64,000 nt of DNA. It comes from a virus. Of the stretch, positions 2,193 to 63,725 are shown piece after piece; within the stretch, counting starts at the first letter, position 1; the number at the start of each line of letters is the position of its first letter. Below the pieces are notes generated by a model. That model saw only the letters and a list, made by a program, of their open reading frames with translations. It was not told the origin of the DNA and did not search any database. Where the stretch lies: IMG/VR virus record IMGVR_UViG_3300032516_000004, positions 1-64,000 of that record. One strand, given 5' to 3'. A program made the position numbers and the translations under genes.

Positions 2193-2209
2193 TGCATGTG
2201 CTATACCAG
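2193..2209 (-). promoter_or_regulatory. sigma54-like promoter (weaker match)
   Basis: Minus strand CTGGTATAGCACATGCA: GG-N10-GC, at head of the minus-strand operon. Confidence 0.45.
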
Positions 2210-2269
2210 TCTAACAATTACCAATATATATTAGTCTCGGATTATTGGGGGTGATACAAGGAGTATATC

Positions 2270-3493
2270 ATGGAACGTAATCTCACATCAGAAGGAACCA
2301 GTACGCTGGCCGATGGGGCTATTCAACGAATTGCCTCCAAAATGCAAGACGTTCAAACTAAGCGTGCCAATAAACATGTTCAACAACCTACCCAGACACC
2401 TATTAAAAATATGGTAAAAACAGCCAGTAAATTGGAAAAGACTGCTGAGATTAAAGTTGCTAGTATCAATGATATTCCTAATGATTTTGAAAAAATGGGT
2501 ACTGGCTTCTATCGTCAAGGTCACCATCTGTGGGAGCTTACTCCACAGGCAGATGGTGGATTTATGTTGACTAGGAAACATGGTGAAGATCATGTTTTGG
2601 GATATGATCCGGAGCCAGTCGTAAGGGAAGCTGCGGTAAGAGATAGACACGGAAAGTCGATAAAAGTTGGTAGTAAGGTTACACTACCACATCGTGGTAC
2701 GGTTACTGCTGGTACTGTGATCATTGTTCAACCAGGTGCTATGGGAGTTGAACTAGATTCTGGTGAGAAGGTAGACACGCCACCAGATATCTGTGAGCTT
2801 CTACAAGAAATGGTTCAAACACCAAACATGCTTGAGCCCAAACAAGAAGTAGACAACCATGAAGAAAACCGTGAAGAAGACCAAGGAAGCGAAGAAATTG
2901 AAGGATCGGATACTGAAGCATGTGTATCATCTGGTCAAGAATTTGAACCTATGGTGGAGCCAACTAGTAAGACAGATATGCCGAAAGAGGTTTCTAAAGA
3001 AGCCAGTATGAAGGAATGGCAAGAATATTGGCATGGAATGGGTCAACACGTTGCTCAGGCTTCATCTCCTAAGCAAACTAAAGAAGAAGCCGCTATGAAG
3101 CGCAAGCAACGTAGGCAGCAACGTTCCGTGGAACGATCCGGACTCCCCAAGGGCATGAAGGTTCCACCTAAGCATCCTAAATCTGGTGCCATAGATACCG
3201 ATGAACTTGCCAAACTCAAGGAACGAAACCGTTTATATCAGCAATGCTTTGATGAAATTGAATATGTTCTCCAAGACGAGTCGTTGAAGACCGATGAGGT
3301 TCGGTTGGCCGATGAGATGGATCGTGTCATGCAAGAATACCACGATCAAATTGAGTCCATGGATGAGCAGACTGAAGAGTCCAGAGAAGACGAATTGTCC
3401 ATTGAAGAGCCAGTGTCTGAACCAGTATCAACTGAGCCCACAGCACCACTACCCAAGATTTCCAAGATTGTGATGTCAATGTCAGAGTTGTAA
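2270..3493 (+). CDS. acidic low-complexity protein, probable virion/head protein
   Basis: 407 aa, AGGAG RBS, multiple KTA/KVA/KEA motifs as in the head-module proteins. Confidence 0.7.
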   Translation: MERNLTSEGTSTLADGAIQRIASKMQDVQTKRANKHVQQPTQTPIKNMVKTASKLEKTAEIKVASINDIPNDFEKMGTGFYRQGHHLWELTPQADGGFMLTRKHGEDHVLGYDPEPVVREAAVRDRHGKSIKVGSKVTLPHRGTVTAGTVIIVQPGAMGVELDSGEKVDTPPDICELLQEMVQTPNMLEPKQEVDNHEENREEDQGSEEIEGSDTEACVSSGQEFEPMVEPTSKTDMPKEVSKEASMKEWQEYWHGMGQHVAQASSPKQTKEEAAMKRKQRRQQRSVERSGLPKGMKVPPKHPKSGAIDTDELAKLKERNRLYQQCFDEIEYVLQDESLKTDEVRLADEMDRVMQEYHDQIESMDEQTEESREDELSIEEPVSEPVSTEPTAPLPKISKIVMSMSEL

Positions 3494-3560
3494 AATAATT
3501 TAGAGGTATTTGATGATTTGCATCTACTATTTGGTTTAAAGTGAGGATCCAGGTGGTCAG

Positions 3561-3860
3561 ATGTGGAGCACAGTAATATCACGAGTAGTAACAATGACAA
3601 ATGAGTCTAAAGACGGTTTTTATAAATGGGTAAAGATGATTGGTATTCTTACCCCGGTAGCGGTTATTGTTTCAGTGATGATGGTGCGTCTTTTAGCAAC
3701 AGATTTCGTTACGAAAGACGAACTATCACAGAGAGAAGTGGTTGCTGAAAAGCTGTCAAAAGAAAGACAAGACGCCATTAATCAACGGCTTGATGGTCTT
3801 ACCATAACAATTCGTGATATATATAATTTACTTTTAACTGAACGACAGAATAAAAAGTGA
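3561..3860 (+). CDS. membrane protein with coiled-coil tail (holin-like?)
   Basis: One TM segment IGILTPVAVIVSVMMVRLL followed by heptads. Confidence 0.5.
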   Translation: MWSTVISRVVTMTNESKDGFYKWVKMIGILTPVAVIVSVMMVRLLATDFVTKDELSQREVVAEKLSKERQDAINQRLDGLTITIRDIYNLLLTERQNKK

Positions 3861-4204
3861 TTGTCACGATAGCTTTTATATTACTTGCAAATTCAACACT
3901 TGATGATTCATCATTGCGTAAAACTGAACTTGAAGCAGCCAAACTTCGTGGATTAGTTGAAATCGAACAATGCGATAAATTAACAATTTCGCATCAACCA
4001 CGGCGTCTTTCATGCCCAACATGTCCAAAATGTAGGTTATATACAACACCCTCTAATGAGGTGTTACACCCAAATGCTCCAAATATGCAGGTGACACCAC
4101 CCGATTCGACACATCAGCGTAATTTGTTAATAAGTATTCCAATCATATCTTTCGTTGTAGGGGTAGCCGTTGGAATTGCAATCGGAATGGCTATCCATTC
4201 TTGA
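3857..4204 (+). CDS. membrane protein, N- and C-terminal hydrophobic segments (spanin-like?)
   Basis: Hydrophobic ends, CPTCPKC in the middle; 4-bp overlap with previous ORF. Confidence 0.5.
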   Translation: MIVTIAFILLANSTLDDSSLRKTELEAAKLRGLVEIEQCDKLTISHQPRRLSCPTCPKCRLYTTPSNEVLHPNAPNMQVTPPDSTHQRNLLISIPIISFVVGVAVGIAIGMAIHS

Positions 4205-4597
4205 ATGGATGGGAACATGCGTAAAATTAATATGACAGCACTAGCCGGTTTAATAACATCTCTTGTTGCGGTTGGTGGATTTGTATTTGGTGTTATTCAA
4301 TATAGCATAGATTCTAAAAATCAAGAGAAAATACAAAGAGCCTCATATGAGGCTACGGCTAAGGGGTTAGATAACTTGTCGTCCGATGTTACCAATGAAC
4401 TTAAAAGAATACATGATGACATACAGTCATTGAAAATAGAGGTCGCTGTATTAAGGGAACGCACTAGACACATGCACAGTATTTCATTACCAATGCGTGA
4501 TGTGGATGGCTCACCAGCAGAAGCTAGAATTCCAAAGATTAGACAACCATCATTGAAAGAATTTAGCGTTGTGCAGAAGAACGCGATAGCTGAATAA
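4205..4597 (+). CDS. membrane protein with coiled coil (holin-like?)
   Basis: TM ALAGLITSLVAVGGFVFGVI + coiled coil. Confidence 0.55.
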   Translation: MDGNMRKINMTALAGLITSLVAVGGFVFGVIQYSIDSKNQEKIQRASYEATAKGLDNLSSDVTNELKRIHDDIQSLKIEVAVLRERTRHMHSISLPMRDVDGSPAEARIPKIRQPSLKEFSVVQKNAIAE

Positions 4598-5717: not shown

Positions 5718-5909
5718 TTATTCTCCATTCCCAAGATCAATATCTGAATGAGGTAGAGGAATACTTTCTGCACAATCTTCGCAAATACGAGGCGTATCAT
5801 ATATAGAAGGGAAGTCTAGATTACACTCCCTTTGGTAACTTTTAATTTCTTGGTTTGTGATTTCTCTACCACATTTTTTGCAGGTGGGTGGGTGTTTACG
5901 CATTACCAT
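5718..5909 (-). CDS. zinc-finger protein
   Basis: CKKC...CEDC. Confidence 0.55.
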   Translation of the reverse strand: MVMRKHPPTCKKCGREITNQEIKSYQRECNLDFPSIYDTPRICEDCAESIPLPHSDIDLGNGE

Positions 5910-6463
5910 TTCTCCGGTTTCTTGAATTTAACCCATGTCGGTGACTCATCTTCAGGATCGAATTGTGGTTTGTATAGAGAATTAATATTCTTGAATACAG
6001 TTCCTTCGTCACCGTTGGCCAAGGAAGCTTCGTACGCGGTTTCCTTGGGGATCCATGGTATTAGTTTAACGAATTTATGATCTCCGGTGCAGGTACGATA
6101 TTCATAAAAATCTTCTAGGTGTTTGCGTCTATCCTTAAGTCGATAGGGGAGGCCAGGAATATCAAATACCCACATATGAGACTTCTTAACCAATTCACAG
6201 TCTAAATACATGGTCCCGTTCATTATCTCGCTAAGTATGTCTTGTAATATTTGTGGCACCCCTACCATTATATGACACTTGCGAGTCCAGATTTTTATAG
6301 TGTGACTACCATTTTCGTTTTTCCATCTACCAGATTGGACAATACATCGTTCTCCGTTAATTTTCGGCTCTGCTATCCATTCAGGATCGTCAATAAGTCG
6401 TTTGTGTAGATCTGTTCCTGGCCACCCCCTCATGGGCTTAGGTGGATATTTGATACCGCCCAT
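5903..6463 (-). CDS. ATP-dependent DNA ligase-like nucleotidyltransferase, catalytic domain only
   Basis: Motif I EPKINGER (KxNG), III YLDCEL, IIIa WVFD, IV EGTVFK..S.Y, V WVKFK; no OB-fold. Confidence 0.8.
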   Translation of the reverse strand: MGGIKYPPKPMRGWPGTDLHKRLIDDPEWIAEPKINGERCIVQSGRWKNENGSHTIKIWTRKCHIMVGVPQILQDILSEIMNGTMYLDCELVKKSHMWVFDIPGLPYRLKDRRKHLEDFYEYRTCTGDHKFVKLIPWIPKETAYEASLANGDEGTVFKNINSLYKPQFDPEDESPTWVKFKKPEKW

Positions 6464-6802
6464 CTATGCTGCCCTTTGTAGTATGGTTGCTTGGTTTTGC
6501 AGCCCAAATCCACCACAACCATGACGACCATTATATCCAAGCCATTTAATTTGTGATGGTATCGTAAATTCTGGTTGAGATTTATCAGACGCAAACACAA
6601 CAACGTTCAATATATCGCCTTCTTTGAATGAGTCCACTACATCATCGGTATGCACAAATCGACCATCAATATACCCAACTTCTGGATAAAAGAAACAACC
6701 ACCAGCAGAGTAATCACATATTTTACCATCGACTAAACAATCTCCTAGTTTGAGCTGAGCGGGTAGTTCAATATTTTCTCTTCTATATGCTCTACGTTCC
6801 AT
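6464..6802 (-). CDS. PilZ-domain protein (putative c-di-GMP receptor)
   Basis: ERRAYRR (RxxxR) and DYSAGG (D/NxSxxG), C-terminal G.GL. Confidence 0.8.
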   Translation of the reverse strand: MERRAYRRENIELPAQLKLGDCLVDGKICDYSAGGCFFYPEVGYIDGRFVHTDDVVDSFKEGDILNVVVFASDKSQPEFTIPSQIKWLGYNGRHGCGGFGLQNQATILQRAA

Positions 6803-6824: not shown

Positions 6825-6842
6825 TTGCAAGATTTATGCCTC
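6825..6842 (-). promoter_or_regulatory. sigma54 promoter
   Basis: Minus strand GAGGCATAAATCTTGCAA, then AGGAGG RBS and ATG of the PilZ gene. Confidence 0.7.
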
Positions 6843-7256
6843 TTTATATTGCCCAATCATGATATCGCACGGATCCCCTTCTCCACTAGTCACATACAAA
6901 CCAAACTCACTGGCTTCATCTTCTAACTGTTTTTGCCATGCCGCGTCACGACACACTTCGCAATGCCCCTCACCAGTCAATGGGTCTCCGGTCGAACCTG
7001 TACACGGGCTAGTTTCATCACACGGTGCGTCAGAAGCTTCTGCACATGCTCGACACACTTCAACATTACTACACGCATACGGCATGTAATATTTGCCACT
7101 GGGCGACATATTAAGCCAGGAACCAAGATAGATTTGACGTTCTCGACGGCCAGGTTCAACCTCTTCCCACGGAGTGCCGCACAATTCCTTGAGGATGTTA
7201 TTCCAGTTGATATGAATTTTACTCTTATAATGTAAAGCCTTAGCGGTATTTTTCAT
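6834..7256 (-). CDS. Cys-rich hypothetical protein
   Basis: 140 aa ORF with CxxC pairs. Confidence 0.65.
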   Translation of the reverse strand: MKNTAKALHYKSKIHINWNNILKELCGTPWEEVEPGRRERQIYLGSWLNMSPSGKYYMPYACSNVEVCRACAEASDAPCDETSPCTGSTGDPLTGEGHCEVCRDAAWQKQLEDEASEFGLYVTSGEGDPCDIMIGQYKEA

Positions 7257-12280: not shown

Positions 12281-12634
12281 CTAAAGTGCCTGCTCAATCT
12301 CTTGATCGGTCCATATGGATTCTTTGACCACATCTCCATTTTTATCTTTCAATGCTAGAAACATGCATGGACCACTAGACCATGGACTTGCTTGCTCGAA
12401 CTCTTCGTAAACATCACCATTGGGTAGTATGTATCGAGTCAAGTCGTGGGAATCAAATCCGTGGTATTCCCCACACTTCTCATACTTGACTAGACTTTCT
12501 TGTCCACTTTGAGTAAGTTCTGCAGTCTTACCGTCTTCATATGTTCGTGTTATCTTGTCCTGATATTTGCGGTATTGCGAGACAACGATGGCTCGAGCCC
12601 GCTCATTCAAACCCATTGGTTGGTCACAGCGCAT
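12281..12634 (-). CDS. conserved phage protein (PWSSGP motif)
   Basis: Motif; AGGAGG RBS. Confidence 0.65.
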   Translation of the reverse strand: MRCDQPMGLNERARAIVVSQYRKYQDKITRTYEDGKTAELTQSGQESLVKYEKCGEYHGFDSHDLTRYILPNGDVYEEFEQASPWSSGPCMFLALKDKNGDVVKESIWTDQEIEQAL

Positions 12635-12698: not shown

Positions 12699-12723
12699 TG
12701 CACGGCACGTGCCAAGCCAAACA
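12699..12723 (-). promoter_or_regulatory. sigma54 promoter with upstream TGTTTGGC element
   Basis: Minus strand TGTTTGGCTTGGCACGTGCCGTGCA (GG-N10-GC) in an intergenic gap. Confidence 0.7.
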
Positions 12724-15697: not shown

Positions 15698-15907
15698 TTA
15701 ATCTCTTACCTTTTTAAGCCACTCATCAAGTGCTGTTTTCCACTTTTTACCATTCATCTCTGTACCGGCTTTCTTCAAGAGAACGTAATCCATGTCATTA
15801 GTATCAACATCATGGGTACCACACTGACAATGATCGAGTGGGCAACCTACCTCACGCTCTTGCCAGGTGCGGGCTTGTTCCATGTAACGACATTTCTTGA
15901 CTTTCAT
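15698..15907 (-). CDS. hypothetical protein
   Basis: AGGAGG RBS. Confidence 0.6.
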   Translation of the reverse strand: MKVKKCRYMEQARTWQEREVGCPLDHCQCGTHDVDTNDMDYVLLKKAGTEMNGKKWKTALDEWLKKVRD

Positions 15908-15938: not shown

Positions 15939-16163
15939 CTAGCTTACCAGTAATAAGATCACTCGACGCAAGGCTGCTGCCATTTCAGCAATGCACATGC
16001 CAGGCAGAATTTTGCCAGTGAATACCACTTCAATTTCACCATCACCTAGATCCATAGTGTCTTCACCAGATTCAACGGTCTCAAACACTGTAATCGAGAA
16101 TGTAACGCTTCGTTGTTTCATGACTCCTCGTGACTGATTCGTTTCATGATCCGCCATTAACAT
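15939..16163 (-). CDS. hypothetical protein (true start probably MKQRS)
   Basis: GAGGAG RBS precedes internal ATG. Confidence 0.45.
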   Translation of the reverse strand: MLMADHETNQSRGVMKQRSVTFSITVFETVESGEDTMDLGDGEIEVVFTGKILPGMCIAEMAAALRRVILLLVS

Positions 16164-16303
16164 TAAAGACTAATATTCGAGTCCATTGACAGCTGTTTAT
16201 ATCCCAAACCCACACATATTCATACATTGAAATTCCCCTTAAGTTCTCGGTGTTCGTATAGCCATCGTTTTCTAAGCATCCTGTCAACCTTCTAATAAAG
16301 TGT

Positions 16304-16391
16304 TGGTGCCTGGGGAGGGGCACGATCCCTCAATCCCTTACGGGCAACAGTTTTTAAGACTGTTCAGTATACCAAATTCCTGCACCCAGGC
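16304..16391 (-). tRNA. trnL: tRNA-Leu(UAA), CCA encoded
   Basis: Acceptor GCCTGGG/CCCAGGC-A-CCA; anticodon stem ACAGT/ACTGT with loop CTTAAAA; long variable arm CCCGTAAGGG; T stem GAGGG/CCCTC. Confidence 0.9.
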
Positions 16392-16439
16392 ACATCAACA
16401 CTTTGGTGGACCCACTCGGCCCATATCATTCTTTTATAG

Positions 16440-16670
16440 TCACCGGGCGGTCTTGGTCAATTGCTGGACCTGTTCTGAGATGTCGGCCAGCATAGCATTG
16501 ACCCGATTTGCCTCATTTCTCAGAAATGGCACTCGCTCCACATCTCCGACCCTAGCTGCCCTTACAAGCTCACTCACCAGTGTGTCACGGCGATTCACCA
16601 AATGACGACGGTTCTTCCGACAAGTGTACAGTTGATCCACGGGACGACGGAAACTAGTGGTTTGTGACAT
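16440..16670 (-). CDS. hypothetical protein
   Basis: GGAG RBS. Confidence 0.55.
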   Translation of the reverse strand: MSQTTSFRRPVDQLYTCRKNRRHLVNRRDTLVSELVRAARVGDVERVPFLRNEANRVNAMLADISEQVQQLTKTAR

Positions 16671-16739
16671 AACAGGCTCCTTCCAACCCTGGGTCTTAAT
16701 GACTGGCCGGGACCACCCCAGACATCCATCAAGACGTTG

Positions 16740-16958
16740 CTATTCTACTGGTAATGCCTCAAAGTCATGCATGTCCGCTCCGATTGGTCGAACGGTCGTC
16801 CAATCAAACCCCATTTCATGTCCCAAATCACGCCAAGCATCATTGGCGTTCTGTTGTGGTGAACGTGGCTGCATGCCGCCGAACACCATATACGGAACCG
16901 GTTTACAGGCATCAAGGATCCGGTTTAACTGTTGGTCAGTCATTCGATATCTTTTCAT
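16740..16958 (-). CDS. conserved small phage protein (AN.AW..LG..MGFD..TV)
   Basis: Recurrent phage motif. Confidence 0.65.
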   Translation of the reverse strand: MKRYRMTDQQLNRILDACKPVPYMVFGGMQPRSPQQNANDAWRDLGHEMGFDWTTVRPIGADMHDFEALPVE

Positions 16959-17401
16959 CCAACTGCTGCCTTCAAGGTCTCGAGCTGAGCCTGGGTTGCC
17001 GCGATTTCCTGTTCGAGCTGCTCTTTGGTCTTGCCAGCCAGCCGCTTATTGGCCCGTCGAATCTGATCCTTTACTCGGTTAGCTTTCTCCTTGCACGCTT
17101 TGCAAAGCTGTGTCTGCTTGGCGTCTTGCACGTTCACGATGCGCTCAGCCCCACATTCCCGGCACGTGATCACGCACACCACCCCATGGGTGTTTTCCAA
17201 CACCGCAAGATCATCGTCAGTTGCCTGACGACGGCTACCTACCATATATTGTGGGTTAACGGCCTTGGTGGTGGCTTCCCACGCGTACAGCTTCTCAGCT
17301 TCCCGGAGTGCCTGTTTAACAGCCTTCAGTTTCTGCTCTTCTACTTTGATCGCCTGAAGATCCGACACCACACCACTAGTAACCGCTGATTCGATAAACA
17401 T
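16955..17401 (-). CDS. coiled-coil/Zn-ribbon protein, paralog of 20521-20970
   Basis: Full-length similarity by eye; AGGAG RBS; sigma54 promoter upstream. Confidence 0.8.
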   Translation of the reverse strand: MFIESAVTSGVVSDLQAIKVEEQKLKAVKQALREAEKLYAWEATTKAVNPQYMVGSRRQATDDDLAVLENTHGVVCVITCRECGAERIVNVQDAKQTQLCKACKEKANRVKDQIRRANKRLAGKTKEQLEQEIAATQAQLETLKAAVG

Positions 17402-17465
17402 TGCTGGCTCCTTTTAGCGGAAGTAAATTTAGTGTTGTATGCTCCGCTTGCATACCACCAGATAG

Positions 17466-17490
17466 TGCAGAACGCGTGCCAAGCTAAACA
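17466..17490 (-). promoter_or_regulatory. sigma54 promoter with upstream TGTTTAGC element
   Basis: Minus strand TGTTTAGCTTGGCACGCGTTCTGCA. Confidence 0.7.
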
Positions 17491-17551
17491 TGTGTGCTTG
17501 GTCCATATCTAGAAACCGTTAATATTTTATTATTTGGTACAGGAGGAAGTT

Positions 17552-18310
17552 ATGGCTAAAGTATTGATTGTTAATATGGCACCCCAAGCATTGTCGCTCG
17601 ATGTTACGTTGGGGGTAAACGTTATCCGTCGAAACATTGCAACCGGTGGTTCCATTGATATCGGAGATGTAGCGACCATTGAGGCCGTGAATCAGAGCCC
17701 TGTTATTAAAGAACTAGTGGCTGCTGGGACGATTCAAGTTTTAAGCCTTGCCGATCCCACAGATGTCGCGGAAGGTACTAAATTGGTGGTGTCCGGATAC
17801 TTGATGGCTCCAGAACTCGCGGATACCGATGGTATCGTGACATCTACCAACTGGGCTAATGGCCCATTAACGATTGCTGGTCAGCCGGATGTCGCCCGCA
17901 ACATCACGGCAGTTCTGACAGATACCAATAACTCGTGTACAGGTCTCTTAACTATTACGGGTGTGGATCCTGCGGGTCGTCCGGTCGTTGAAGTGATGAG
18001 ACCCAATGGTGCGGGTGCGGGTAAGACACTAACCGGCACCAAAATCTTTGCCCAAGTGACCAGTTGCGTGTTGAGTGGCTGTGCCGGTGGTACGCCATCC
18101 ACGGATGTCGTGGTAATTGGGTATGGTAATGTGGTGGGTCTTCCGTCTGATATCCAAGCCACCACGGCAGTCAAGAGTGTATATCTCGGTGATACCCGAC
18201 AAGCCTCCCCGACCATTAAACTGGGGACTAGTACCAGTGGCGTTGACGCGTCGGCGGGCACCTATGATGGCACCAAGCCCCTGGTCGTGGTTTATAATAC
18301 CGGCGAATAA
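17552..18310 (+). CDS. putative virion structural/decoration protein (beta-rich)
   Basis: AGGAGG RBS; DVARNIT...LTITGVD..G....E.......G.K.F..VTS motif typical of phage structural proteins; G/T/V-rich. Confidence 0.6.
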   Translation: MAKVLIVNMAPQALSLDVTLGVNVIRRNIATGGSIDIGDVATIEAVNQSPVIKELVAAGTIQVLSLADPTDVAEGTKLVVSGYLMAPELADTDGIVTSTNWANGPLTIAGQPDVARNITAVLTDTNNSCTGLLTITGVDPAGRPVVEVMRPNGAGAGKTLTGTKIFAQVTSCVLSGCAGGTPSTDVVVIGYGNVVGLPSDIQATTAVKSVYLGDTRQASPTIKLGTSTSGVDASAGTYDGTKPLVVVYNTGE

Positions 18311-18386
18311 TCTGACGCTAGATCCTCGAGGAGACGAGCCTGGAATTGGTTCACCGGGTATACAGTCCACACAATCCGATAACCAT

Positions 18387-18791
18387 TCAAGGTAGCTCCT
18401 TACCCAATAGCGCGGTTTCCTGGGCGTCTAAACCGTATTGTGGATCCTGCAATTTTTCGATCTCCTGTTTGATGCGCCGGACAATCAGTGGTTCTTGGCT
18501 ATTGACGAAGATGTAGTGAACCATATCATGGGTATAAACCCAGGCTTTGAAACCATGTTTGAAACTTGGTACCCATTCTTGGCAGAATTCAAAGCCAAAG
18601 TACCAGCACTCATCTTCGGGCATCCCCTGGTAGCTCGCAATATTGGCGACTTGAGTATCTGACGCTTCACTAAGGATCTCAGCAATCTCTAGCCCATGAT
18701 TGGCCGCCTTAGTCAATAGACGGGTAATTTGTTTGAAAATTGCAGGCTTTATAATGGTGAACGGCGGGTGGTCGGTCAACGTAAATAACAT
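18387..18791 (-). CDS. hypothetical protein
   Basis: AGGAG RBS. Confidence 0.65.
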   Translation of the reverse strand: MLFTLTDHPPFTIIKPAIFKQITRLLTKAANHGLEIAEILSEASDTQVANIASYQGMPEDECWYFGFEFCQEWVPSFKHGFKAWVYTHDMVHYIFVNSQEPLIVRRIKQEIEKLQDPQYGLDAQETALLGKELP

Positions 18792-19101
18792 GACTTAGCT
18801 CCTTCCTTGGGTGGTTTAAACACCATTAACTGGGGATTATGGTTTCCCGGTTAGTGGTTGGTAATTATTGTGGGTTGGGTTTACCGTAATATTAAGACAT
18901 TGTATGGTAGCGTATGTTACCAGATATGTGGGTCATGTGACGGTTTTCAGGGTAATGACCGTGGGGTCACACGATATTTTCACAAAGTGTTGACGGCAAT
19001 CTTAGGTCGAGACCCCCGGCGACCCCCGGTCTAGGTATCATGTTAGCGACCTCCCAGCCATAACCCCCAGACGAGACATATTCGAAACGTCTTTCATGTC
19101 T

Positions 19102-19237
19102 AGCGTGTTACCGGTTGGTAACGCTGACATGCCCGTTGTCAACGGTCGTTGACACTTTGTAAACGATCGTTTACAATATGCAACCATTTGCATATTTGAC
19201 TCGTTATCCGGTATGTTACCGGCTGGTAACGCTGACA
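19102..19237. repeat. cluster of palindromes and a 24-nt palindromic direct repeat
   Basis: TGTTACCGG(T/C)TGGTAACGCTGACA at 19106-19129 and 19214-19237; GTCAACG-gt-CGTTGAC 19138-19153; perfect 20-bp palindrome TTGTAAACGATCGTTTACAA 19157-19176; ATATGCAA-ccat-TTGCATAT 19176-19195. Confidence 0.85.
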
Positions 19238-19324
19238 ATATATTGGTGAACTACACTACACTTAGACTATTGTGTCTTAATAGTGTTGATCAAGATAAGA
19301 GTAATGCTTAGAACGCAGAACGTG

Positions 19325-19684
19325 TTATCCTCCCATGCGATGGAGCTGGCGACATAGCGAGACCAGCTCCCGTTGTTTGGCTAACACTTCATAGTCCCGC
19401 TTCACGGTTCCGATCCGATTCAGAATTGCCGCTGCATAGTCCCGATCACCTCGAGCCATCGCCTCTTGGGCTAGCTTGAGGCCAAGCTCTACCACGTCGG
19501 TCAGGTCCCCGGTACTTGGTCCTGACATTGCAAAACACACGCCTGCTGGTCTCCGGGGTCGCTTGACCCGCCATCGACCTGCCTTCACGGGCTTGTGCTG
19601 GCAGGCTCCCACGGGCACAGCGGCCCTTGCGATGGTAGCCGAGTATCGGATGATGTCACGGGTCCAGGGTTTTGGTAGATTCAT
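19325..19684 (-). CDS. hypothetical protein
   Basis: AGGAG RBS. Confidence 0.6.
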   Translation of the reverse strand: MNLPKPWTRDIIRYSATIARAAVPVGACQHKPVKAGRWRVKRPRRPAGVCFAMSGPSTGDLTDVVELGLKLAQEAMARGDRDYAAAILNRIGTVKRDYEVLAKQRELVSLCRQLHRMGG

Positions 19685-19906
19685 GATTCTCCTCTCTTGA
19701 CACGTTCAATTTCCTGTTTCATGGCTAGTTCGATGAACTTGATAATCCGCTCGTCGAACTGGAAATTCCCGGATGGGTCAGACATCTCGTTCTCGGGTCA
19801 TGGTTCCTTTCAGCAATACTTGACAGCTGTTATTCGCTGTGTTACCCTGAACCCTTTCTAGGATTCAGGGCGACCACACCACCGACTCCCCCACCCCCCC
19901 TACCGC

Positions 19907-19931
19907 TGCACCGTGGATGCCAAGCCAAACA
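19907..19931 (-). promoter_or_regulatory. sigma54 promoter with upstream TGTTTGGC element
   Basis: Minus strand TGTTTGGCTTGGCATCCACGGTGCA. Confidence 0.7.
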
Positions 19932-20046
19932 TCTTGTGGTATCTTGGGACATCGACGGCTCGTGGTCGTAAGGTTAACTGCAACCTAGAAATCTCCAGAT
20001 CCCGGAGATTATCCGGGTCCACGGTCGGAAAATGTCTAGGTCCCGG

Positions 20047-20214
20047 TTATGACCAGTGGATCATGGACCGGAGAAAGTCCCGGTCTATTATCACCTCCTT
20101 GGGCTTTGCCTCCACTAGGGTCAGACCACCCAGGAAATCGGGGTCAATAAGCGGCCGGGTCACATCTTCACGGGTAGTGTCAACGGGTCTACGGACTTTC
20201 TTGGACTTCTTCAT
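20047..20214 (-). CDS. small hypothetical protein (start MKKSKK)
   Basis: AAGGAGGATACCATG RBS. Confidence 0.5.
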   Translation of the reverse strand: MKKSKKVRRPVDTTREDVTRPLIDPDFLGGLTLVEAKPKEVIIDRDFLRSMIHWS

Positions 20215-21734: not shown

Positions 21735-21735
21735 G

Positions 21736-21957: not shown

Positions 21958-21965
21958 TGATTTGT

Positions 21966-44751: not shown

Positions 44752-46437
44752 ATGCCACAAACAAAAACACCAACAAAATCACAAATAGGTACGACTGTTG
44801 GAGCTACTGTACCTGGTATGCGTGAAGCACAAACACAAAAGGCAGTTTCCGTTATTACGCCTTCTGTACCAGAAGTTGTTGGTGAAAGCCCTAAAGAAGT
44901 CATAGATAAATTGAAGAAAGTTCAAGAGCAACAAGTTCGTGATAAGCAACAAGAAATGCAAAATATGCAAAAGCAAATTACTATGATGCAAGCTGTTACA
45001 TCTATGCGTAAACAAGCACTTATAAGAAAAGCACAAACTACGCTGTCGACACCACCACAACAGCAAAAATTGGAAGAGAATCTAGAACAGCAAGAACAGG
45101 CTGAAGAGCAAGAAATTGATGAACAGCAGCAACTAAACCTACAGAATCAGGTAGCGCAGCAACAACAGCAACAGATGCAACAGATGAATGTTGGTCAGCA
45201 GCAAATGTTGCAAAAACAATCATTTACTCATCCTGAACGAGCTGATGTGGAAATTAAACTTGGTAATTCATTGGTTTTATGTGATGTTGCAGCAACCGCA
45301 AGACAACAAGTAACAGGTTTACAAGCCTATGAGTCATTGCCTCGAGATCGTGGATTATGGTTTCCAATGTATACTAGAAGAGCCGCGTCTTTTCACATGG
45401 GCGATGTTGGATTTCCTATTGATATTGTATTTGTGGATAACAATAAAATCGCTAAGATAGTGTCTAATATTCAGCCCAATCAGATGGGGTCATGGTCAGC
45501 ACAGTGTACGGATGTCGTAGAAGTAAATGGTGGCTGGTGTGGTGAAAATCATGTGCGTGTTGGATATAAAGTGCAAACCCCCACGTCTAATAAAACAGCC
45601 TCCCGTTCCACAATAGAGCGGGCCATTAACACCTCGTGGTCAGCTCCTCAAAAGGCACGAATCAAGAGTGATAAAGATTCTGGAACATCATATGACCAGC
45701 TTCGTACTATTACGGAGGCGGAAACCACGAAAGACCCATTACTCGAGCAGATTGAAGCTCTGATACCTGAACTTAAGAAAACTGCTCAAGAAGATTATAA
45801 GGTGAAACCAGTCACCTACCGAGAACAACCTGGCGAAATTGATCGACGAAATCCCGCCGAACGTTTTCGAGATCATGATCTTCCACCGGTAAGCAGTCCA
45901 ATGGGTGAAGACGCTCCTAGCTCAGCGATTGCTGATCCTCTGAATTCTGGGGTTAGTTCTTATGATCGATCGCATTGGAAGATGCAGTTGGGGTTTGACC
46001 CACTAACTCAACCAGATACTGGAAAGTCACAACTAGAAAAGATTCAGACCGGTCGTGGTCCAACTGAAGGTGAACAGGTCGTTAGACCAGCCTCTCGACA
46101 GGCTCAAATACCTGTTAATACATCTAATGAGCTGGCCGGTGTTAATACTGAGAAACTTGCCAAAAGCTCTCTTCAGCTATATACTAACAGCCCACCTGAT
46201 TGGGGAACGACTCAAGATCCAAGAGGATACGACAAGATGGCGATCATTAACGATCAGGTGATCTCAAATTGGATCTCAAAACTAGGATTTGATGAGAAGA
46301 ACGAGTCTAAACTAAGACAGACTATGTTTACTGAGACCTACAAGCGAATGCTGGGTGACAGTCTAGTGACTGCACGCCTAGTTTCTGACTTCGACATAAT
46401 GGGTAGTGATTTACTGCTCTATCGGAGAGACCAATGA
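44752..46437 (+). CDS. Gln-rich protein with DUF192 domain
   Basis: DVA.T..Q...GL.....LP.DRGLWF...FHM..V.FPIDIVF...VVEVNGGW. Confidence 0.8.
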   Translation: MPQTKTPTKSQIGTTVGATVPGMREAQTQKAVSVITPSVPEVVGESPKEVIDKLKKVQEQQVRDKQQEMQNMQKQITMMQAVTSMRKQALIRKAQTTLSTPPQQQKLEENLEQQEQAEEQEIDEQQQLNLQNQVAQQQQQQMQQMNVGQQQMLQKQSFTHPERADVEIKLGNSLVLCDVAATARQQVTGLQAYESLPRDRGLWFPMYTRRAASFHMGDVGFPIDIVFVDNNKIAKIVSNIQPNQMGSWSAQCTDVVEVNGGWCGENHVRVGYKVQTPTSNKTASRSTIERAINTSWSAPQKARIKSDKDSGTSYDQLRTITEAETTKDPLLEQIEALIPELKKTAQEDYKVKPVTYREQPGEIDRRNPAERFRDHDLPPVSSPMGEDAPSSAIADPLNSGVSSYDRSHWKMQLGFDPLTQPDTGKSQLEKIQTGRGPTEGEQVVRPASRQAQIPVNTSNELAGVNTEKLAKSSLQLYTNSPPDWGTTQDPRGYDKMAIINDQVISNWISKLGFDEKNESKLRQTMFTETYKRMLGDSLVTARLVSDFDIMGSDLLLYRRDQ

Positions 46438-56919: not shown

Positions 56920-59900
56920 ATGACAAGTTTAATCCGGGGTAGTATGTATGGGGATCCTAGAGTCCAGGCATCTCGCGAACTACCCCATGGTATGACTCCT
57001 GATTCTATCGAACAACTAGCCTCGAGATTCGAAAATTTCGTGCCCGGTATTTCCAGCTCACAAGGCACAGCATCAAAACAATTCTTTGAAGGTTTGCTGC
57101 CTGAGGGCGCAGAACTGTCACCCAGAACACATCGGCAGGCACAATTCAATATACCGGGTGGCGGCGCATTGAGTAACTTTATTGGTGGAGGGGTTGGGGG
57201 TGGTGGTGGTACCATGGTGACCCCACAACAACCCTACCAGCCAGAGTTCAGCGATCCCTCGAGACAAGCCTATCCCATCCATCGAATTTTGGCTAATCGT
57301 TACTGGCGTTTATTCTATAAGTTAGATCCAACTATTGGCAATTGTGTCGATCTCATGGCCACAATGCCATGGTCAGATTGCCAATTAACAGGTGAAGGGG
57401 TTACCGGTGAAATTAAAGAAGCCTACGAGGAAATGTGGAAAGAGTGTGAGATACTAAAAATTCTTGAATATATGGTTAAGGAATTCTTAGTGGTCGGTGA
57501 AGTGTGTAACCATTGCTTCTTCGATGATTCAAAGGGCATCTGGACCTATGTGGCGCTTCATAATCCTGATCAGCTAGAAGTAATCGATGCCCCATTCATA
57601 AAAATGCAACCGGTAATCGAGTTTATTCCTGACGATCGATTACGAGCAGTTCTTACCTCCAATAATCATCTGTTGCGTCGTATTAGAGAGCAAATGCCTG
57701 CCGAGCTGATCGCTCGTCTAATTGCACGACAAAATATACCGCTTAGCCCTATTAATGCTACTTTTATTCCTCGTCGTTTACATCCCTATGATACTCGTGG
57801 CACCAGCATTATCAGTAGAATGTGGCGGATACTGATGTATGAGGATAGCCAACCACCTGGAACCCCAATTACCAGACCAGATGGCACAAATACACCAATT
57901 GAACAAATATCTATTAATGATCTAATTGTTGGTAAAAACGGTGACATACAAAAAATAACTCATATCTCTGAAAAATACTCAGAAGAACTTATGGAAATTA
58001 AAATTCATGGTGGTTGGACAATTAACTGTACCAAGAGCCATAAATGGCCAATATTCAAAAAGGATAGCTATCGTAGTGGTTCTATAAAAACGCTTGCTTC
58101 AAATATACAGATTGGTGACTATTTATCAATACCTCGACAATTTGTTAAATCTAAGTTAGATAAAAATTCTACTAGTTCCATGGCCAGATTATTGGGTTAT
58201 TATGTGGCCGAGGGATCTAGAACTAATATATCTAGTCAATATAAAGGAAAGACCTATAAATATCACCATGGATTATCCTGGGCTCTATCATTAGATGAAA
58301 AGAACACCTTAGCTAAAGATATTCTTGAAATATGCACTAAAATAAATTGTAGTCCAAAATTTTATGTTGGGAAGTCAAATTTAAGTAGAAATGGCTGTGC
58401 AATACACACTCACAAAAAAGCAGACATCTGGTTAGCTGATTGGATGTTTAGTAATGGAGGTGAACACGCGGCTACAAAACAGCTCTCTCAAATGGTAATG
58501 GGGTGGCCTCTAAAACTTAAACAAGAATTTATTCGTGGTTATTTTAGAGGCGATGGATCATATAATCTATTGTGTAAGCCTAAAACAAAAATAACACAAA
58601 GACGTACAGTTCAAAGCACTGTAAAAGCAGCAACCGTATCATCTGCTCTGGCGTATCAAATACAACTAATCCTTGCCCAATTGGGAATTTTTGCTAAGAT
58701 TAGGGTCTATCAACCACCCAACAATGATGGAAGAAATAGACGAAAAATTAATTATATAGAATGTACTGGTCGTCATGGTGATAAGCTAGCGTCGGTTGTT
58801 TGGGGTAAAGTTAGAGAACGATCTGTTATGGATCACAGATCGCAATCACGTGTTGTTGTAACTAAGACACACATATTGTTACCAATCACCAAGGTGGCCA
58901 TCGAAAAATATGATGGATTAGTCTATAGTCTTGAAACATCTGGTGATCACTCATATTTAAATGCAAATGTCGCAACATATAATTCGATTTATAATGCATC
59001 TATTCAAACGGCTAGAAGACAGAGTAGTCCCTTGAAGATCGCTAAACTAGGAAATCCGCAAACAGGCTGGATTCCCAGCCCTGAACATGAACAACGTCTA
59101 CTACGTTTGTTAGCTCAGGCTGAAATGGATCCTGCGGCATGGATCACGTACCATTACGGGATCCAATTTGAGTTGGTTGGTGTTCAAGAACGAGTAATGA
59201 ACATCAGCCAACACAATGAAGTGATTGAACGGATTAAGTTAGTTGCACTCGGAATTAGTAAAGCGTTCCTATCGGGCGAGGTCACGTATAGCTCGGCCTA
59301 CACGGGTCTTTCAGTTTTCTTGCAACGCATGAAGGCGATGCGTAATTTCTTTGTTAATAGTTGGGTGATCCCCAAGTTCTTTACTCCAATTGCGAAGATG
59401 AACGGTTGGGTGAAGAGTGACAAGGGTGAACTGAACCATCGGTACCGAATTAAGAGATCCCAGCGAGAGATTGAACAACAAAATCGGTACATAATCCCAC
59501 ATATTGAATGGGAAAAACAACTTGACCAGACCATTAATAGTGATTTGGTAAATGCCATGACCTCACTCGAGGGTCTAGGGATCAAGTTCTCCAAGACCAC
59601 CAAGTATGCGGCGGTGAATAAGAAGTTTGAGGAAGAGGTTCGGAAGATCAAGGAAGAGCAAAAATTCGAAATGGAGCTAGCCCCATATATTGCGCCTAGT
59701 CAAGTGGCGGGTGGACCTGGTGCACCCGGTGGTGCTCCACCAATGCCTACTGGAGGAGGGCCACCGGCCCCAATGGGTGGTGAGCCTGAACCAGGCGCTG
59801 GGGCATTACCTCCAGGAGCCATGGGTCCAGGTGCTGAAGCGTCGTCTGATAAAGCGGGGGCAGGTGGTGGTACGGGTCCTTCAGGTAAGAAGGATCCAGC

Positions 59901-60402
59901 AGTTCGTGATATGGAATCCAGTATCTGGGATCGTAAAGGTAGGTCCGGGAATTGGTCGGCGTCAGAAATTCATGAGCTTGATCAGTTGATCCGCGAGGGA
60001 CATACTGACTCACCATTGTGGGGTGATATGGATGGTCCAGCATTTAGAAAGGCTGTGAATTCCCAGGACGCTTGGCAAGTCCTTGAGGTTATTGAAGATC
60101 ACTTGACTGACCATGGATATCCGGCAGATGACATCCGACAACTACGTAGAATTCTCGATGAAGAGGGGGTTCTAAAGGACATATCGACTGGTGATGTAGA
60201 AGTATTAAAGTCTGTTGAACGGAAAATGGATGATAGTGGTACATTAAACGATCAAGATGCCATGGAACGACTATCAGCACAAATAGATGGTGAAAAGACT
60301 GGCACAGTAGAAATGGGAAATCCAGAGTTACTCTACGTTGGTCATGGAAATCAAGATATTGGGTCCTGGAGCGGGGATATTAGTGATAAGATTCCTAGAT
60401 AA
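56920..60402 (+). CDS. portal protein containing an intein
   Basis: WRLFYKLDPTIG..VD...PWSD, EFLVVGEV, P/G-rich tail; position downstream of terL; intein splits YED|S IYN. Confidence 0.75.
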   Translation: MTSLIRGSMYGDPRVQASRELPHGMTPDSIEQLASRFENFVPGISSSQGTASKQFFEGLLPEGAELSPRTHRQAQFNIPGGGALSNFIGGGVGGGGGTMVTPQQPYQPEFSDPSRQAYPIHRILANRYWRLFYKLDPTIGNCVDLMATMPWSDCQLTGEGVTGEIKEAYEEMWKECEILKILEYMVKEFLVVGEVCNHCFFDDSKGIWTYVALHNPDQLEVIDAPFIKMQPVIEFIPDDRLRAVLTSNNHLLRRIREQMPAELIARLIARQNIPLSPINATFIPRRLHPYDTRGTSIISRMWRILMYEDSQPPGTPITRPDGTNTPIEQISINDLIVGKNGDIQKITHISEKYSEELMEIKIHGGWTINCTKSHKWPIFKKDSYRSGSIKTLASNIQIGDYLSIPRQFVKSKLDKNSTSSMARLLGYYVAEGSRTNISSQYKGKTYKYHHGLSWALSLDEKNTLAKDILEICTKINCSPKFYVGKSNLSRNGCAIHTHKKADIWLADWMFSNGGEHAATKQLSQMVMGWPLKLKQEFIRGYFRGDGSYNLLCKPKTKITQRRTVQSTVKAATVSSALAYQIQLILAQLGIFAKIRVYQPPNNDGRNRRKINYIECTGRHGDKLASVVWGKVRERSVMDHRSQSRVVVTKTHILLPITKVAIEKYDGLVYSLETSGDHSYLNANVATYNSIYNASIQTARRQSSPLKIAKLGNPQTGWIPSPEHEQRLLRLLAQAEMDPAAWITYHYGIQFELVGVQERVMNISQHNEVIERIKLVALGISKAFLSGEVTYSSAYTGLSVFLQRMKAMRNFFVNSWVIPKFFTPIAKMNGWVKSDKGELNHRYRIKRSQREIEQQNRYIIPHIEWEKQLDQTINSDLVNAMTSLEGLGIKFSKTTKYAAVNKKFEEEVRKIKEEQKFEMELAPYIAPSQVAGGPGAPGGAPPMPTGGGPPAPMGGEPEPGAGALPPGAMGPGAEASSDKAGAGGGTGPSGKKDPAVRDMESSIWDRKGRSGNWSASEIHELDQLIREGHTDSPLWGDMDGPAFRKAVNSQDAWQVLEVIEDHLTDHGYPADDIRQLRRILDEEGVLKDISTGDVEVLKSVERKMDDSGTLNDQDAMERLSAQIDGEKTGTVEMGNPELLYVGHGNQDIGSWSGDISDKIPR
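57847..58983 (+). mobile_element. intein with LAGLIDADG homing endonuclease (379 aa)
   Basis: Block A SQPPGTPI, block B TKSH, LLGYYVAEGS and FIRGYFRGDGS, block F VYSLET, end TYN followed by +1 Ser. Confidence 0.9.
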
Positions 60403-60603: not shown

Positions 60604-60845
60604 GTTGGATCCTTTACCACAGTCATTGATCTTTTATTACATTCTGGGCATTTATATTCGTATGTTCCCGGTATTTTGGGTGCTGGGGGTGGGTGGTGAT
60701 ATTGATGCCTACATTGTTGCTTGTCGGCGGTGTACGATCCCGCAAACTTAGCTCTTGCTCTGTCTAATAAGATTTTAACCCTATATGGTGGAAGGCTATG
60801 TACCATATTGTGGTTCATATATTCTATTATAGTCGGTAGCATCAT
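60597..60845 (-). CDS. small Zn-ribbon protein
   Basis: CRH..H.PP....YEYKCPEC. Confidence 0.55.
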   Translation of the reverse strand: MMLPTIIEYMNHNMVHSLPPYRVKILLDRARAKFAGSYTADKQQCRHQYHHPPPAPKIPGTYEYKCPECNKRSMTVVKDPTW

Positions 60846-61323
60846 TTATGTTTTGGTCTAACATAAATGCCCGATCCCAAGTAAAACTAAATTTGTTGAT
60901 AATGTCGGTAATTAATTTTTTGTCAGTTATTACAATAGAACAGTCAAACATTGTGCTGGGGGACCAATTTCTTCCACCAAGAATTGCTACCGGTTTTGTC
61001 CCATAAATTATTACACATTTAAAATGACTTTTAGGTAATACTCGACAAGTCATTTGATGCCCGATGTGTTTCGAAATGCTCCTTGCTTTCTCAACGCATT
61101 TATCAAATGAAGTATTGGTTTTTAATTTTAGGAAACCATTTTTAGGTGGAGCGCCAATTAACAGTCTACATGGAATATTGCGACCCTTAATCATATTTAA
61201 CATGTTAGACGCTTGTTTATATAGAATAACACCATACGATGCTATGTCCACACGCTTAGCATCTAAAAGCTTATTTTGAATGAATCGCCAATATTCCTGT
61301 TCATCCCAAATAAGTTCAGTCAT
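60796..61323 (-). CDS. phospholipase D-like (HKD) nuclease domain protein
   Basis: SHFKCVI...AILGGRNWS. Confidence 0.75.
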   Translation of the reverse strand: MTELIWDEQEYWRFIQNKLLDAKRVDIASYGVILYKQASNMLNMIKGRNIPCRLLIGAPPKNGFLKLKTNTSFDKCVEKARSISKHIGHQMTCRVLPKSHFKCVIIYGTKPVAILGGRNWSPSTMFDCSIVITDKKLITDIINKFSFTWDRAFMLDQNINDATDYNRIYEPQYGT

Positions 61324-62394: not shown

Positions 62395-62396
62395 TG

Positions 62397-62927
62397 TTAT
62401 ACCTCATTACCCCAGTGATCCCAGTTTGAGCGTATTTCCCTTGCGAACATCTCAAGTCTAGGACTTGGACTTATACTTTCAAAATAAGCAAATGCCTCAT
62501 CGGGTTTCTTGCTATGTCGAGTTCTTGTGGCAAATACCACTGATGGCTTTCTATTTATTGGTTTTGGCACCATCGCGGCACCACGTGTACCCAATAGACA
62601 CAGTTCGTGAGATCCCATGATGTATCGACCAAGACCTTTTTGCAATTTCCCATTAGCGCCCATCTTGACCCACGCGATATGAGTTACATACCTAAACCCA
62701 ATGTCTTTCATCACTACCAAGGCATCAGGAAGATGATTTAAGGTCACCCACATCCACAGATGGGCGTCCACATCAACGAAGTCCCAACACGGCGAATTTA
62801 GAATGACACGTACAACGTCTGGGGTACGTAGAAGGTTGTAGTGCTTGTCAGAACCACGTTTTATTTTACCACCACCTGGTTCCCACCACGGTGGATCAAC
62901 TACAACACATTTATACATAATTATCAT
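62397..62927 (-). CDS. MT-A70-family N6-adenine methyltransferase
   Basis: VVDPPW, LWMWVT, ELCLLGTRG, HSKKPDE, LEMFAR...WGNE. Confidence 0.9.
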   Translation of the reverse strand: MIIMYKCVVVDPPWWEPGGGKIKRGSDKHYNLLRTPDVVRVILNSPCWDFVDVDAHLWMWVTLNHLPDALVVMKDIGFRYVTHIAWVKMGANGKLQKGLGRYIMGSHELCLLGTRGAAMVPKPINRKPSVVFATRTRHSKKPDEAFAYFESISPSPRLEMFAREIRSNWDHWGNEV

Positions 62928-63253
62928 CCACGTTTAAGCTCATCTATTGCTGGATAAGCTTTACCACGTCCTGGTTTTCTAAACCATCCTTTCAAACCAT
63001 CTCTTGGTATATAAGTACCAAAACATCCTTGACCACATATGTCTTCAACATTACGTAATTTACGTGCGGCGTCTATTGTGATTTTACCACAAGCATTACA
63101 AAGCGAAGCCATTACCACCTTATTTTTAATGTGGACATGACCAGATTCATATTCGACGATAGATGACCCACATACCACACAATTTACTGTACTAGCCATT
63201 TTGCATCCCCGCTCTCTCACCAAGTTCCTTCCTCCACCAATATTGCCCTTCAC
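62924..63253 (-). CDS. Zn-finger protein
   Basis: CVVC...CNAC. Confidence 0.55.
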   Translation of the reverse strand: MKGNIGGGRNLVRERGCKMASTVNCVVCGSSIVEYESGHVHIKNKVVMASLCNACGKITIDAARKLRNVEDICGQGCFGTYIPRDGLKGWFRKPGRGKAYPAIDELKRG

Positions 63254-63686
63254 CTTCTTGGCGAGCCCTAAAATTGGTATATCCTAGAGCCCAACGAATT
63301 GCATTCTTGAGCTGTTTGATTTGTTTCTTATATTCTTTAAGCCTTTTGGTTAAATACAAGTTATCAAATGGTTTTCCTTTGCCATAGAATACTTTGAAGA
63401 ATTCCTGGGCCGACAATTTACCATTATTATCAAATGTGAGGAATGGGACATCAATAAAATAGTCTGATTTTATGGTTGGCAAAATGTCATAGACACACCG
63501 CCATGAACATAGATGTAAATGCTTACATGCGTGATCCTGGGTAAACACTTTGATCTCTAAGTATTCTCGATCATCCTTATTGAAGTCAATTAGTTGCTTA
63601 CACCAATCGCAACCATATGTGGCCTCAGACATGATTTTACGACTTCCACACTTACATGTTTTATATTTTGCCTCTTTTATAAGCAT
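63192..63686 (-). CDS. hypothetical protein with Cys motifs (start MLIKE)
   Basis: GGAGG RBS; CKC...CDWC. Confidence 0.6.
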   Translation of the reverse strand: MLIKEAKYKTCKCGSRKIMSEATYGCDWCKQLIDFNKDDREYLEIKVFTQDHACKHLHLCSWRCVYDILPTIKSDYFIDVPFLTFDNNGKLSAQEFFKVFYGKGKPFDNLYLTKRLKEYKKQIKQLKNAIRWALGYTNFRARQEGEGQYWWRKELGERAGMQNG

Positions 63687-63707
63687 ATGACCTCCAAATA
63701 TAGGGAA

Positions 63708-63725
63708 TTGCAAATTTTGTGCCTA
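63708..63725 (-). promoter_or_regulatory. sigma54 promoter
   Basis: Minus strand TAGGCACAAAATTTGCAA, upstream of GGAGG RBS. Confidence 0.7.

Follow-up and report, generated by a model that had tools for sequence, protein, structure and literature searches.

In the first 64,000 nucleotides (the window) of the virus record IMGVR_UViG_3300032516_000004, short boxes of the form GG-N10-GC stand just before leftward genes and resemble the -24/-12 elements of promoters that depend on the sigma factor sigma-54 (RpoN). This raises the question whether a phage has placed a set of accessory genes under sigma-54 control and, if so, what reads the boxes. The sigma-54 holoenzyme is unable to open DNA alone and needs an ATPase activator; bacterial promoters of this class, for example glnAp2, nifH and pspA, follow the consensus TGGCAC-N5-TTGCW. 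In a published version the consensus is TGGCAC-N5-TTGCT (PMC12316311). The record, here called G000, stems from an uncultured phage from sediment; it comprises 177,941 bp, is rated 100% complete and has a GC content of 41%. Since its first ~100 bases recur imperfectly 136 bases from its end, the assembly is circular or terminally redundant. A tail-sheath domain identifies a contractile-tailed phage, and very few of its proteins have a family match. Codon-trained calling of open reading frames (ORFs) gave ~249 genes and left 8.2% of the DNA non-coding. Its family was defined by the tail-sheath and major-capsid proteins and contains 32 IMG/VR contigs and GenBank entry KX853510 (Virus Rctr197k). 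The sigma-54-type signature was found before fast-changing small accessory genes in G000 and in at least 15 relatives, and we consider it fairly probable that the boxes are promoters read by host RNA polymerase with sigma-54.

The original prediction had placed eight GG-N10-GC sites on the minus strand of the window, and all eight are present there at their given positions. Seven of them (6826, 12699, 17466, 19907, 22659, 27417 and 63709) fit GGCAY-N6-TGCW, the strict pattern used throughout this work. The eighth, CTGGTATAGCACATGCA (2193-2209, minus strand), had been called weaker and is indeed a degenerate copy, TGGTAT...ATGCA, without the C of GGC; it resembles the second promoter type of the phage (see below) as much as a sigma-54 promoter. 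It precedes a small ORF and the gene for a DUF6744 protein and corresponds in position to strict sites of relatives; the closest of these, whose DUF6744 protein is 89% identical, has a strict GGCAT...TGCA box at this position. The whole genome contains 13 strict matches, 11 of them in the window, among which are two minus-strand sites beyond the reported eight (15987 and 21156). Just upstream of a gene and co-oriented with it are 11 of the 13: nine of these are minus-strand sites of the window, and the other two form a divergent pair outside it, 97731 (-)/97788 (+), with 42 bp between the GG elements and each 25-26 nt from a start codon. The remaining strict matches lie in coding DNA or distant from starts; the palindromic pair 24597/24598 is not promoter-placed. 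The box consensus in G000 is (T/A)GGCA(C/T)G-N4-(T)TGCA, and the recurring positions include the T ahead of GG and the G that follows CAC. Scored over 12 consensus positions, six window sites reach 11 and three more 9-10; the six 11/12 matches in the genome are all promoter-placed.

These numbers were compared with controls. One hundred shuffles of the window gave 3.3 ± 2.0 strict matches (maximum 7) as compared to the 11 found. The spacing is rigid: N6 yielded 13 matches, eight of them intergenic, whereas N3-N5 and N7-N9 yielded 1-6 matches with 0-1 intergenic, and in three genomes it was the 10-nt distance from GG to GC alone that was enriched and intergenic. A test for intergenic enrichment, which had been proposed as a check, was clearly positive: 8/13 strict genome matches fall into the 8.2% non-coding DNA (binomial p = 1.8e-6), and the same holds for the relatives G002 (p = 1.6e-8) and Rctr197k (p = 4.5e-5). 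Every promoter-placed site is co-oriented with the next gene. As negative control we used PaBG, a Pseudomonas phage distantly related to Rctr197k through its capsid and terminase (PMC7412058); it was not enriched (8 matches versus 9 in the control). A position weight matrix trained on the relatives recovered the top G000 sites, but the high GC content of the relatives' spacers confounded it, and we relied on the tests of consensus and spacing instead.

The boxes also have the geometry of promoters. The positions -11 to -2 are AT-rich, 0.76-0.78 as compared to 0.37-0.55 for the genomes of G002, Rctr197k and G004, and an AT-rich stretch follows the GC in G000 as well. A ribosome-binding site and a minus-strand start had been claimed downstream of each site, and a Shine-Dalgarno sequence with a start codon was indeed found at 23-80 nt, except for 19907 and 21156 with their leaders of ~100-185 nt. 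No Shine-Dalgarno sequence was seen to start less than 13 nt after the C of GC, so none precedes the predicted transcript start. In five units (6826, 22659 and 63709, and 97731 and 97788 outside the window) it begins 13-16 nt after this C, that is at predicted +1 to +4, and the predicted leader has only ~11-15 nt. Two units have 65-nt leaders with a common short sequence containing GGTATGCAA, and the 100-185-nt leaders of the 19907 and 21156 units lie within a 50%-GC island of differing codon usage. In several relatives a hairpin starts up to ~15 nt after the GC, near the predicted transcript start. A reading of the box itself as an RNA hairpin was rejected, as with TGCA only 3 bp can pair. 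Three boxes carry an extension: TGTTTGGCT (12715-12723, minus strand) abuts the -24 box and recurs at 17482-17490 and 19923-19931. The TGTTTRGCT element predicted upstream of three boxes thus occurs at exactly three sites, with 0.03 matches expected by chance, and since an exact search for the element plus box had no match in other IMG/VR viral contigs, the extension is private to this phage.

Small genes on the minus strand form arms, which extend over ~4.7-17.4, 18.4-22.6, 26.8-27.4 and 60.4-63.9 kb; a further arm, 168.6-177.9 kb, runs across the record junction. The following sites are all on the minus strand. The sigma-54-type promoter TGGCACGCGTTCTGCA (17466-17481) heads a long leftward array of small genes (17401 to ~4735), and a gene for tRNA-Leu(TAA) (16304-16391, minus strand) lies downstream within its transcription unit. 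Inside this array, the least secure site is TGGCATGTGCATTGCT (15987-16002), 80 nt upstream of gene 15698-15907, since it shares sequence with the end of a doubtful ORF of 60 aa; TGGCACGTGCCGTGCA (12699-12714, 11/12 consensus) lies 65 nt before gene 12281-12634; and AGGCATAAATCTTGCA (6826-6841), which falls into the 31 nt that separate gene 6834-7256 from gene 6464-6802, stands 24 nt ahead of the ATG of a PilZ gene. The first two genes of the latter unit (5903-6802, minus strand) encode a PilZ-domain protein (6464-6802) and an ATP-dependent DNA-ligase-like fragment (5903-6463). TGGCATCCACGGTGCA (19907-19922) precedes small GC-rich ORFs (to 19325), and AGGCACGAAAATTGCA (21156-21171) is followed by a hairpin-bearing leader of ~185 nt and then by gene 20521-20970. 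The leader (20971-21155, minus strand) contains several perfect hairpins; sub-threshold Rfam matches nearby were PhotoRC-I at 20990-21025 (E 0.024) and twister-P5 at 20448-20502 (E 0.079). TGGCACGACGCCTGCA (22659-22674) lies 25 nt before the gene for a 222-aa Cas7-like protein (21966-22634, minus strand) and its pentamer array. AGGCACGAGATTTGCA (27417-27432) precedes gene 26950-27354, and AGGCACAAAATTTGCA (63709-63724) lies 23 nt before gene 63192-63686, the first of an operon that runs to 60403 and includes an MT-A70 family methyltransferase (62397-62927, minus strand) and a PLD-like protein (60796-61323, minus strand). Five of the boxes fall into the region ~16000-27000, an island of ~50% GC in the 41% GC genome with a poor codon score by the phage-trained model, which was possibly exchanged with GC-richer relatives.

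PHROG and Pfam annotation was blank for most arm genes, and the remaining genes behind boxes have no family match. The 222-aa protein had been taken for part of a RAMP system; this identity was not borne out by Pfam or PHROG, neither of which gave a match, and the protein is not similar to the second Cas7-like protein of the phage and has no relatives in IMG/VR. The wider proposal, that accessory genes are tied to a host or phage activator of sigma-54, stands in part: a conserved promoter class does precede the PilZ/ligase-like, Cas7-like and MT-A70/PLD-like genes, but an enhancer-binding protein of the phage was not found. The DUF6744 gene behind the degenerate site (1050-1964, minus strand) is conserved in more than 40 relatives; in relatives, a strict sigma-54-type site lies directly before it or one gene upstream. 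Together with a bpMoxR AAA+ ATPase (3-572, minus strand, continuing across the junction to genome position 177220) and a VWA protein (175715-177022, minus strand) it forms a conserved module, which is shared with G002 at 44-62% identity; there, each of the genes has its own sigma-54-type box.

The motif is kept across divergent relatives with GC contents of 41%, 48%, 63% and about 45%. G002 (166 kb, 48% GC, 62% sheath identity) has 11 strict boxes on one strand in its first 26 kb, an arm syntenic with the leftward arm of G000, and a divergent pair at 85.0 kb. G004 (161 kb, with direct terminal repeats) has 21 matches versus 4 for a reversed-pattern control, most of them in one arm (79.5-110.8 kb) that opens with a back-to-back pair. 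In 11 metagenomic loci collected via the DUF6744 protein (64 kb in total), 18 strict boxes are sense and 1 is antisense, and the T-rich tail is the same. Orthologous genes keep the box while the flanks have diverged: the pair 97731/97788 of G000 corresponds to 85037/84999 of G002 (45% protein identity), a weaker case is 17466 of G000 and 10843 of G002 (42% identity over 52 aa), and in the DUF6744 operon the box is kept while the surrounding intergenic DNA has diverged. The gene content of the arm, in contrast, turns over almost entirely; the G004 arm has one protein in common with G000. On another relative, IMGVR_UViG_3300027877_000008, four tandem sigma-54-type boxes (489-668, minus strand) lie in 180 bp of GC-rich repeats at the end of the 47-kb contig.

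A compact arrangement was found in Rctr197k (197 kb, 63% GC), which has 12 strict boxes at 128.6-142 kb and one CGCT variant; 11 of the strict boxes sit 13-14 nt before an annotated start. The cassette reads preceding stop codon, TGGCAC, N5-6, TGCT, ATAAAGTGAGCC, ATG, with ~45 nt from stop to ATG and the ATG exactly 13 nt behind TGCT. The ATG falls on +2/+3 (+3 if the C is taken as -12), and therefore the mRNAs of Rctr197k would be leaderless. Several units annotated only as misc_feature begin at the cassette spacing as well and are probably real genes. The paper on Rctr197k does not mention promoters or sigma factors (PMC5099504). Rctr197k and G000 have only virion genes in common, and Rctr197k has no homologues of PurZ, DnaE or bpMoxR. 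A link of the boxes to the Z-base pathway was rejected on this ground, as Rctr197k has the promoters but neither PurZ nor DnaE.

What, then, reads the boxes? Six-frame searches of G000 gave neither Sigma70_r2 nor a multisubunit RNA polymerase (RNA_pol_Rpb1_2), and Sigma70_r4 gave just a 10.7-bit match (E 0.08), which is under the 24.1-bit cut-off. An rpoN gene had been suggested as a possible find elsewhere in the genome; the six-frame search revealed neither Sigma54_DBD nor an RpoN box. The second suggestion, an enhancer-binding protein encoded by the phage, fell as well: there is no GAFTGA motif, and the sole AAA+ match is the bpMoxR ATPase. The AAA+ gene at the record junction was rejected as such a protein, since its PF00158 match is bpMoxR (E 1e-55 to PF20030) adjoining the VWA protein. 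No RNA polymerase domain was detected in the large virion proteins of the phage, and seven relatives are without a detectable sigma factor, RNA polymerase, Sigma54_DBD or enhancer-binding-protein domain. A second promoter class was found, TG(T)GGTAT(T/A)AT of the extended -10 type, with six intergenic copies, all on the plus strand (26104-26112, 30386 and 56883 in the window; 66643, 130953 and 159586 in the genome), one of them ~13 nt before the gene of a transfer-messenger RNA (tmRNA). From this sigma-70-type class, including the copy before the tmRNA gene, it follows that G000 uses the host polymerase. The tmRNA itself (26126-26492, plus strand) scored 144.7 bits with Rfam and has the tag ANSDVEQPVTRQLAAA.

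A box of 12 positions with fixed spacing is kept by phages of differing GC content whose non-structural genes are all different; therefore, the most economical reader would be a host factor of invariant specificity, as sigma-54 is. In the model that we propose, host RNA polymerase carrying sigma-54 would read the boxes, the phage supplying neither polymerase nor sigma factor, and the leftward accessory arm as well as the matching arm of the relatives would be cut into short transcription units. Each unit would start at TGGCACG-N4-(T)TGCA, transcription would set in ~12 nt downstream of the GC, and a leader that is very short (absent in Rctr197k) would lead to a small gene. Since sigma-54 needs an ATPase activator and the phage encodes none, the activator is most likely an enhancer-binding protein of the host, possibly one that acts without nearby binding sites, and expression of the accessory genes would be conditional on a host signal. 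The sequences themselves show the motif with its spacing, placement, orientation, conservation and geometry, and the lack of phage genes for a sigma factor, RNA polymerase and enhancer-binding protein; sigma-54 binding, the transcript start, the activator and the timing are what we infer from them.

Several observations weigh against this model. Genes as small as these are usually early genes, which need to be expressed before any phage factor exists. No activator gene was found in G000 or in the seven relatives, no shared upstream activator sequence emerged (nothing was significant in a test for upstream k-mer enrichment), and many boxes follow the preceding stop codon directly, which leaves no room for a classical enhancer. 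As there is no shared upstream sequence and many boxes abut stop codons, an activator would need to act out of solution, from within coding DNA or over a distance. For the Rctr197k cassette, TGCTATAAAGTGAGCC-ATG, a second reading is that of an extended -10 sigma-70 promoter with a leaderless mRNA. Furthermore, the only genome-linked relative, found by a scan of species genomes for the major capsid protein, is a 14.9-kb contig (71% capsid identity) binned in a metagenome-assembled genome (MAG) of Actinomycetes without Sigma54_DBD, and Actinomycetota are essentially without rpoN (PMC12316311). This binning holds down our rating of the sigma-54 model. The link is weak: the five MAG contigs sampled are 2.5-4 kb long with a GC content similar to that of the phage contig, and the bin is fragmented and matched by composition.

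Other routes to the host gave little. A scan of genomes with LigA had no match, the nearest named PurB homologues are taxonomically mixed, and the tmRNA, compared with 201 Actinomycetota genomes, gave just 24-31-nt end matches, one of them in genome G189, on which we base no claim. A host among Myxococcota or Desulfobacterota, as originally suggested, is not indicated: nothing points specifically there, and the one weak hint is the Actinomycetes bin without rpoN.

In some alternatives the phage itself contributes. It is conceivable, if rather unlikely, that in this family of large uncultured myophages an undescribed small phage protein enables the sigma-54 holoenzyme to open the DNA without a classical AAA+ activator (or to recruit one from solution), or that a sigma-54-mimicking factor operates in hosts without rpoN. 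We regard it as unlikely, too, that the boxes are read by an unrecognised factor, encoded by the phage or delivered with the virion, that has converged on or copied the specificity of sigma-54, so that rpoN of the host is not needed. Such a factor would explain why neither an enhancer-binding protein nor enhancer sites were found, and it could be hidden among the phage proteins, most of which have no family match; virion genes alone are common to all family members, and some are very large and unannotated. The relative in the rpoN-less bin would fit as well, but the bin evidence is weak, as described above. An independent factor would, however, need to reproduce the sigma-54 consensus at 11-12 positions together with its exact spacing, and the six-frame searches gave no sigma, RNA polymerase or Sigma54_DBD signal. 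Moreover, no non-structural protein is conserved between G000 and Rctr197k, and the near-complete turnover of the arm genes makes a shared phage-encoded reader unlikely.

If sigma-54 does bind, the boxes might still be mostly silent docking sites (roadblocks, insulators or a sink for holoenzyme), with the genes using other promoters, for example those of the TGGTAT class. Passages in PMC4591121 describe that sigma-54 holoenzyme of Escherichia coli binds many sites that are transcriptionally inactive, and neither an activator nor an upstream activator sequence was found here. Boxes 12699, 17466 and 27417 of G000 are followed by a TGGTAT-like element; at 27417 it is a weaker extended -10-like copy, TGGTATTGT, 24 nt downstream (27379-27393, minus strand), and judged by this arrangement 27417 may be a tandem promoter. 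The tandem of four boxes that one relative has in 180 bp at the end of its contig would fit docking, too. Yet a recognisable sigma-70 promoter is missing from the vicinity of most sites: neither TGGTAT-like nor -10-like elements were found near 6826, 19907, 22659, 63709 or the weak 2193, nor near 97731 and 97788, and sigma-70 consensus promoters are not in excess in the region. The sites are strictly sense, a Shine-Dalgarno sequence or ATG comes right after predicted +1, and the AT-rich melting regions and the hairpins near the predicted transcript start are conserved. Silent docking is therefore improbable in our view.

The motif could further be an operator, bound by a DNA-binding regulator of phage or host and lying over weak, unrecognised sigma-70-type promoters, in Rctr197k within an extended -10 leaderless promoter. 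In the cassettes of Rctr197k, TGCTATAAA occurs 7-8 nt upstream of the ATG, with some spacers the box becomes partly palindromic (GGCACGTGCC), and the phage encodes a LexA-type DNA-binding protein. A -10-like hexamer after the box (resembling TATAAT, 5-9 nt upstream of the start, with or without TG), however, fits the Rctr197k cassettes only and was not found in G000, G002 or G004. The box was rejected as a true palindromic operator, since its conserved 3' half is TGCA/TGCT and not the mirror GTGCC, and a regulator conserved across phages that have only virion genes in common is unlikely; altogether, we give the operator little credence. Finally, chance or base composition can practically be discounted: the loose GG-N10-GC pattern is barely enriched (302 versus 276 ± 14 expected) and consensus matches with three mismatches are at background level, but the strict matches and the specificity of their spacing depart widely from chance, as do their position between genes, their strand bias and their conservation in relatives. 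Shuffles, spacing test, intergenic enrichment and the strand bias of the relatives refute chance as the explanation.

Some further features were noted in the genome. A 121-aa protein (31610-31975, plus strand) heads the rightward structural arm; it has a LexA DNA-binding domain (E 2e-15), lacks a protease domain and is a candidate phage regulator. In the virion-region arm, a conserved protein of 1160 aa (56920-60402, plus strand) contains an intein with a LAGLIDADG endonuclease domain at residues ~343-685, and a ferritin-like domain and a DUF192 domain were found in the large proteins 32675-33949 (plus strand) and 44752-46437 (plus strand), respectively. A megablast of the structural block against GenBank phages gave no match.

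Sigma-54 is the one bacterial sigma factor that is unable to fire without an ATP-driven activator, and by setting a block of genes behind it, a phage cedes their control to a signalling protein. In the family studied here, which comprises environmental phages of 160-200 kb, the box is the trait that defines the gene arm, and it outlasts a complete turnover of the genes. This raises the questions which activator fires the boxes and what host condition the phage senses. The compact cassettes (~45 nt) could also serve synthetic biology as small, tightly off, inducible promoters.

Like bacterial sigma-54 promoters, the boxes have 11-12 consensus positions, a rigid spacing and an AT-rich stretch after -12, and they lie upstream of and co-oriented with genes. 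Unlike these, they are virus-borne and have neither an enhancer or upstream activator sequence nor a gene for an enhancer-binding protein nearby; there is one box per one to few small genes, packed behind the preceding stop codon, and the leaders are very short or absent. That sigma-54 regulons are rarely described in phages, as had been supposed, agrees with a passage in PMC5053324 that calls the use of sigma-54 by phages rare. The only published case that we found is a single promoter in the Pseudomonas aeruginosa phage YuA, which was reported to be strictly dependent on host sigma-54 (Ceyssens et al. 2008, as cited in PMC5053324). By ONT-cappable-seq, one sigma-54-like promoter was seen in YuA (bioRxiv 10.1101/2023.10.13.562163), and the GenBank record has a single annotated active -24/-12 promoter, before the scaffold gene gp55; the YuA genome contains no strict GGCAY-N6-TGCW match. 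G000 is like YuA (Yuavirus) in that a phage without its own RNA polymerase has a promoter type of host sigma-54. The two phages are unrelated, however, and whereas YuA has one promoter before a structural gene, G000 has 11 sites and each of three complete relatives has 10-20, before accessory genes, and the array is conserved across a phage family. With the early promoter arrays of T4-type phages the boxes share a variable arm of small genes, a compact promoter per unit and gene turnover, but those promoters are of the sigma-70 type and activator-free, whereas the boxes carry the signature of an enhancer-dependent sigma factor. They resemble the inactive sigma-54 sites of E. coli in being consensus boxes without obvious activator; the E. 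coli sites are, according to passages in PMC4591121, mostly intragenic and in either orientation, whereas those of the phages are intergenic, sense and at a fixed distance from translation signals. What is new, therefore, is that throughout a phage family each genome would control its variable accessory arm by 10-20 sigma-54-type promoters without a phage activator.

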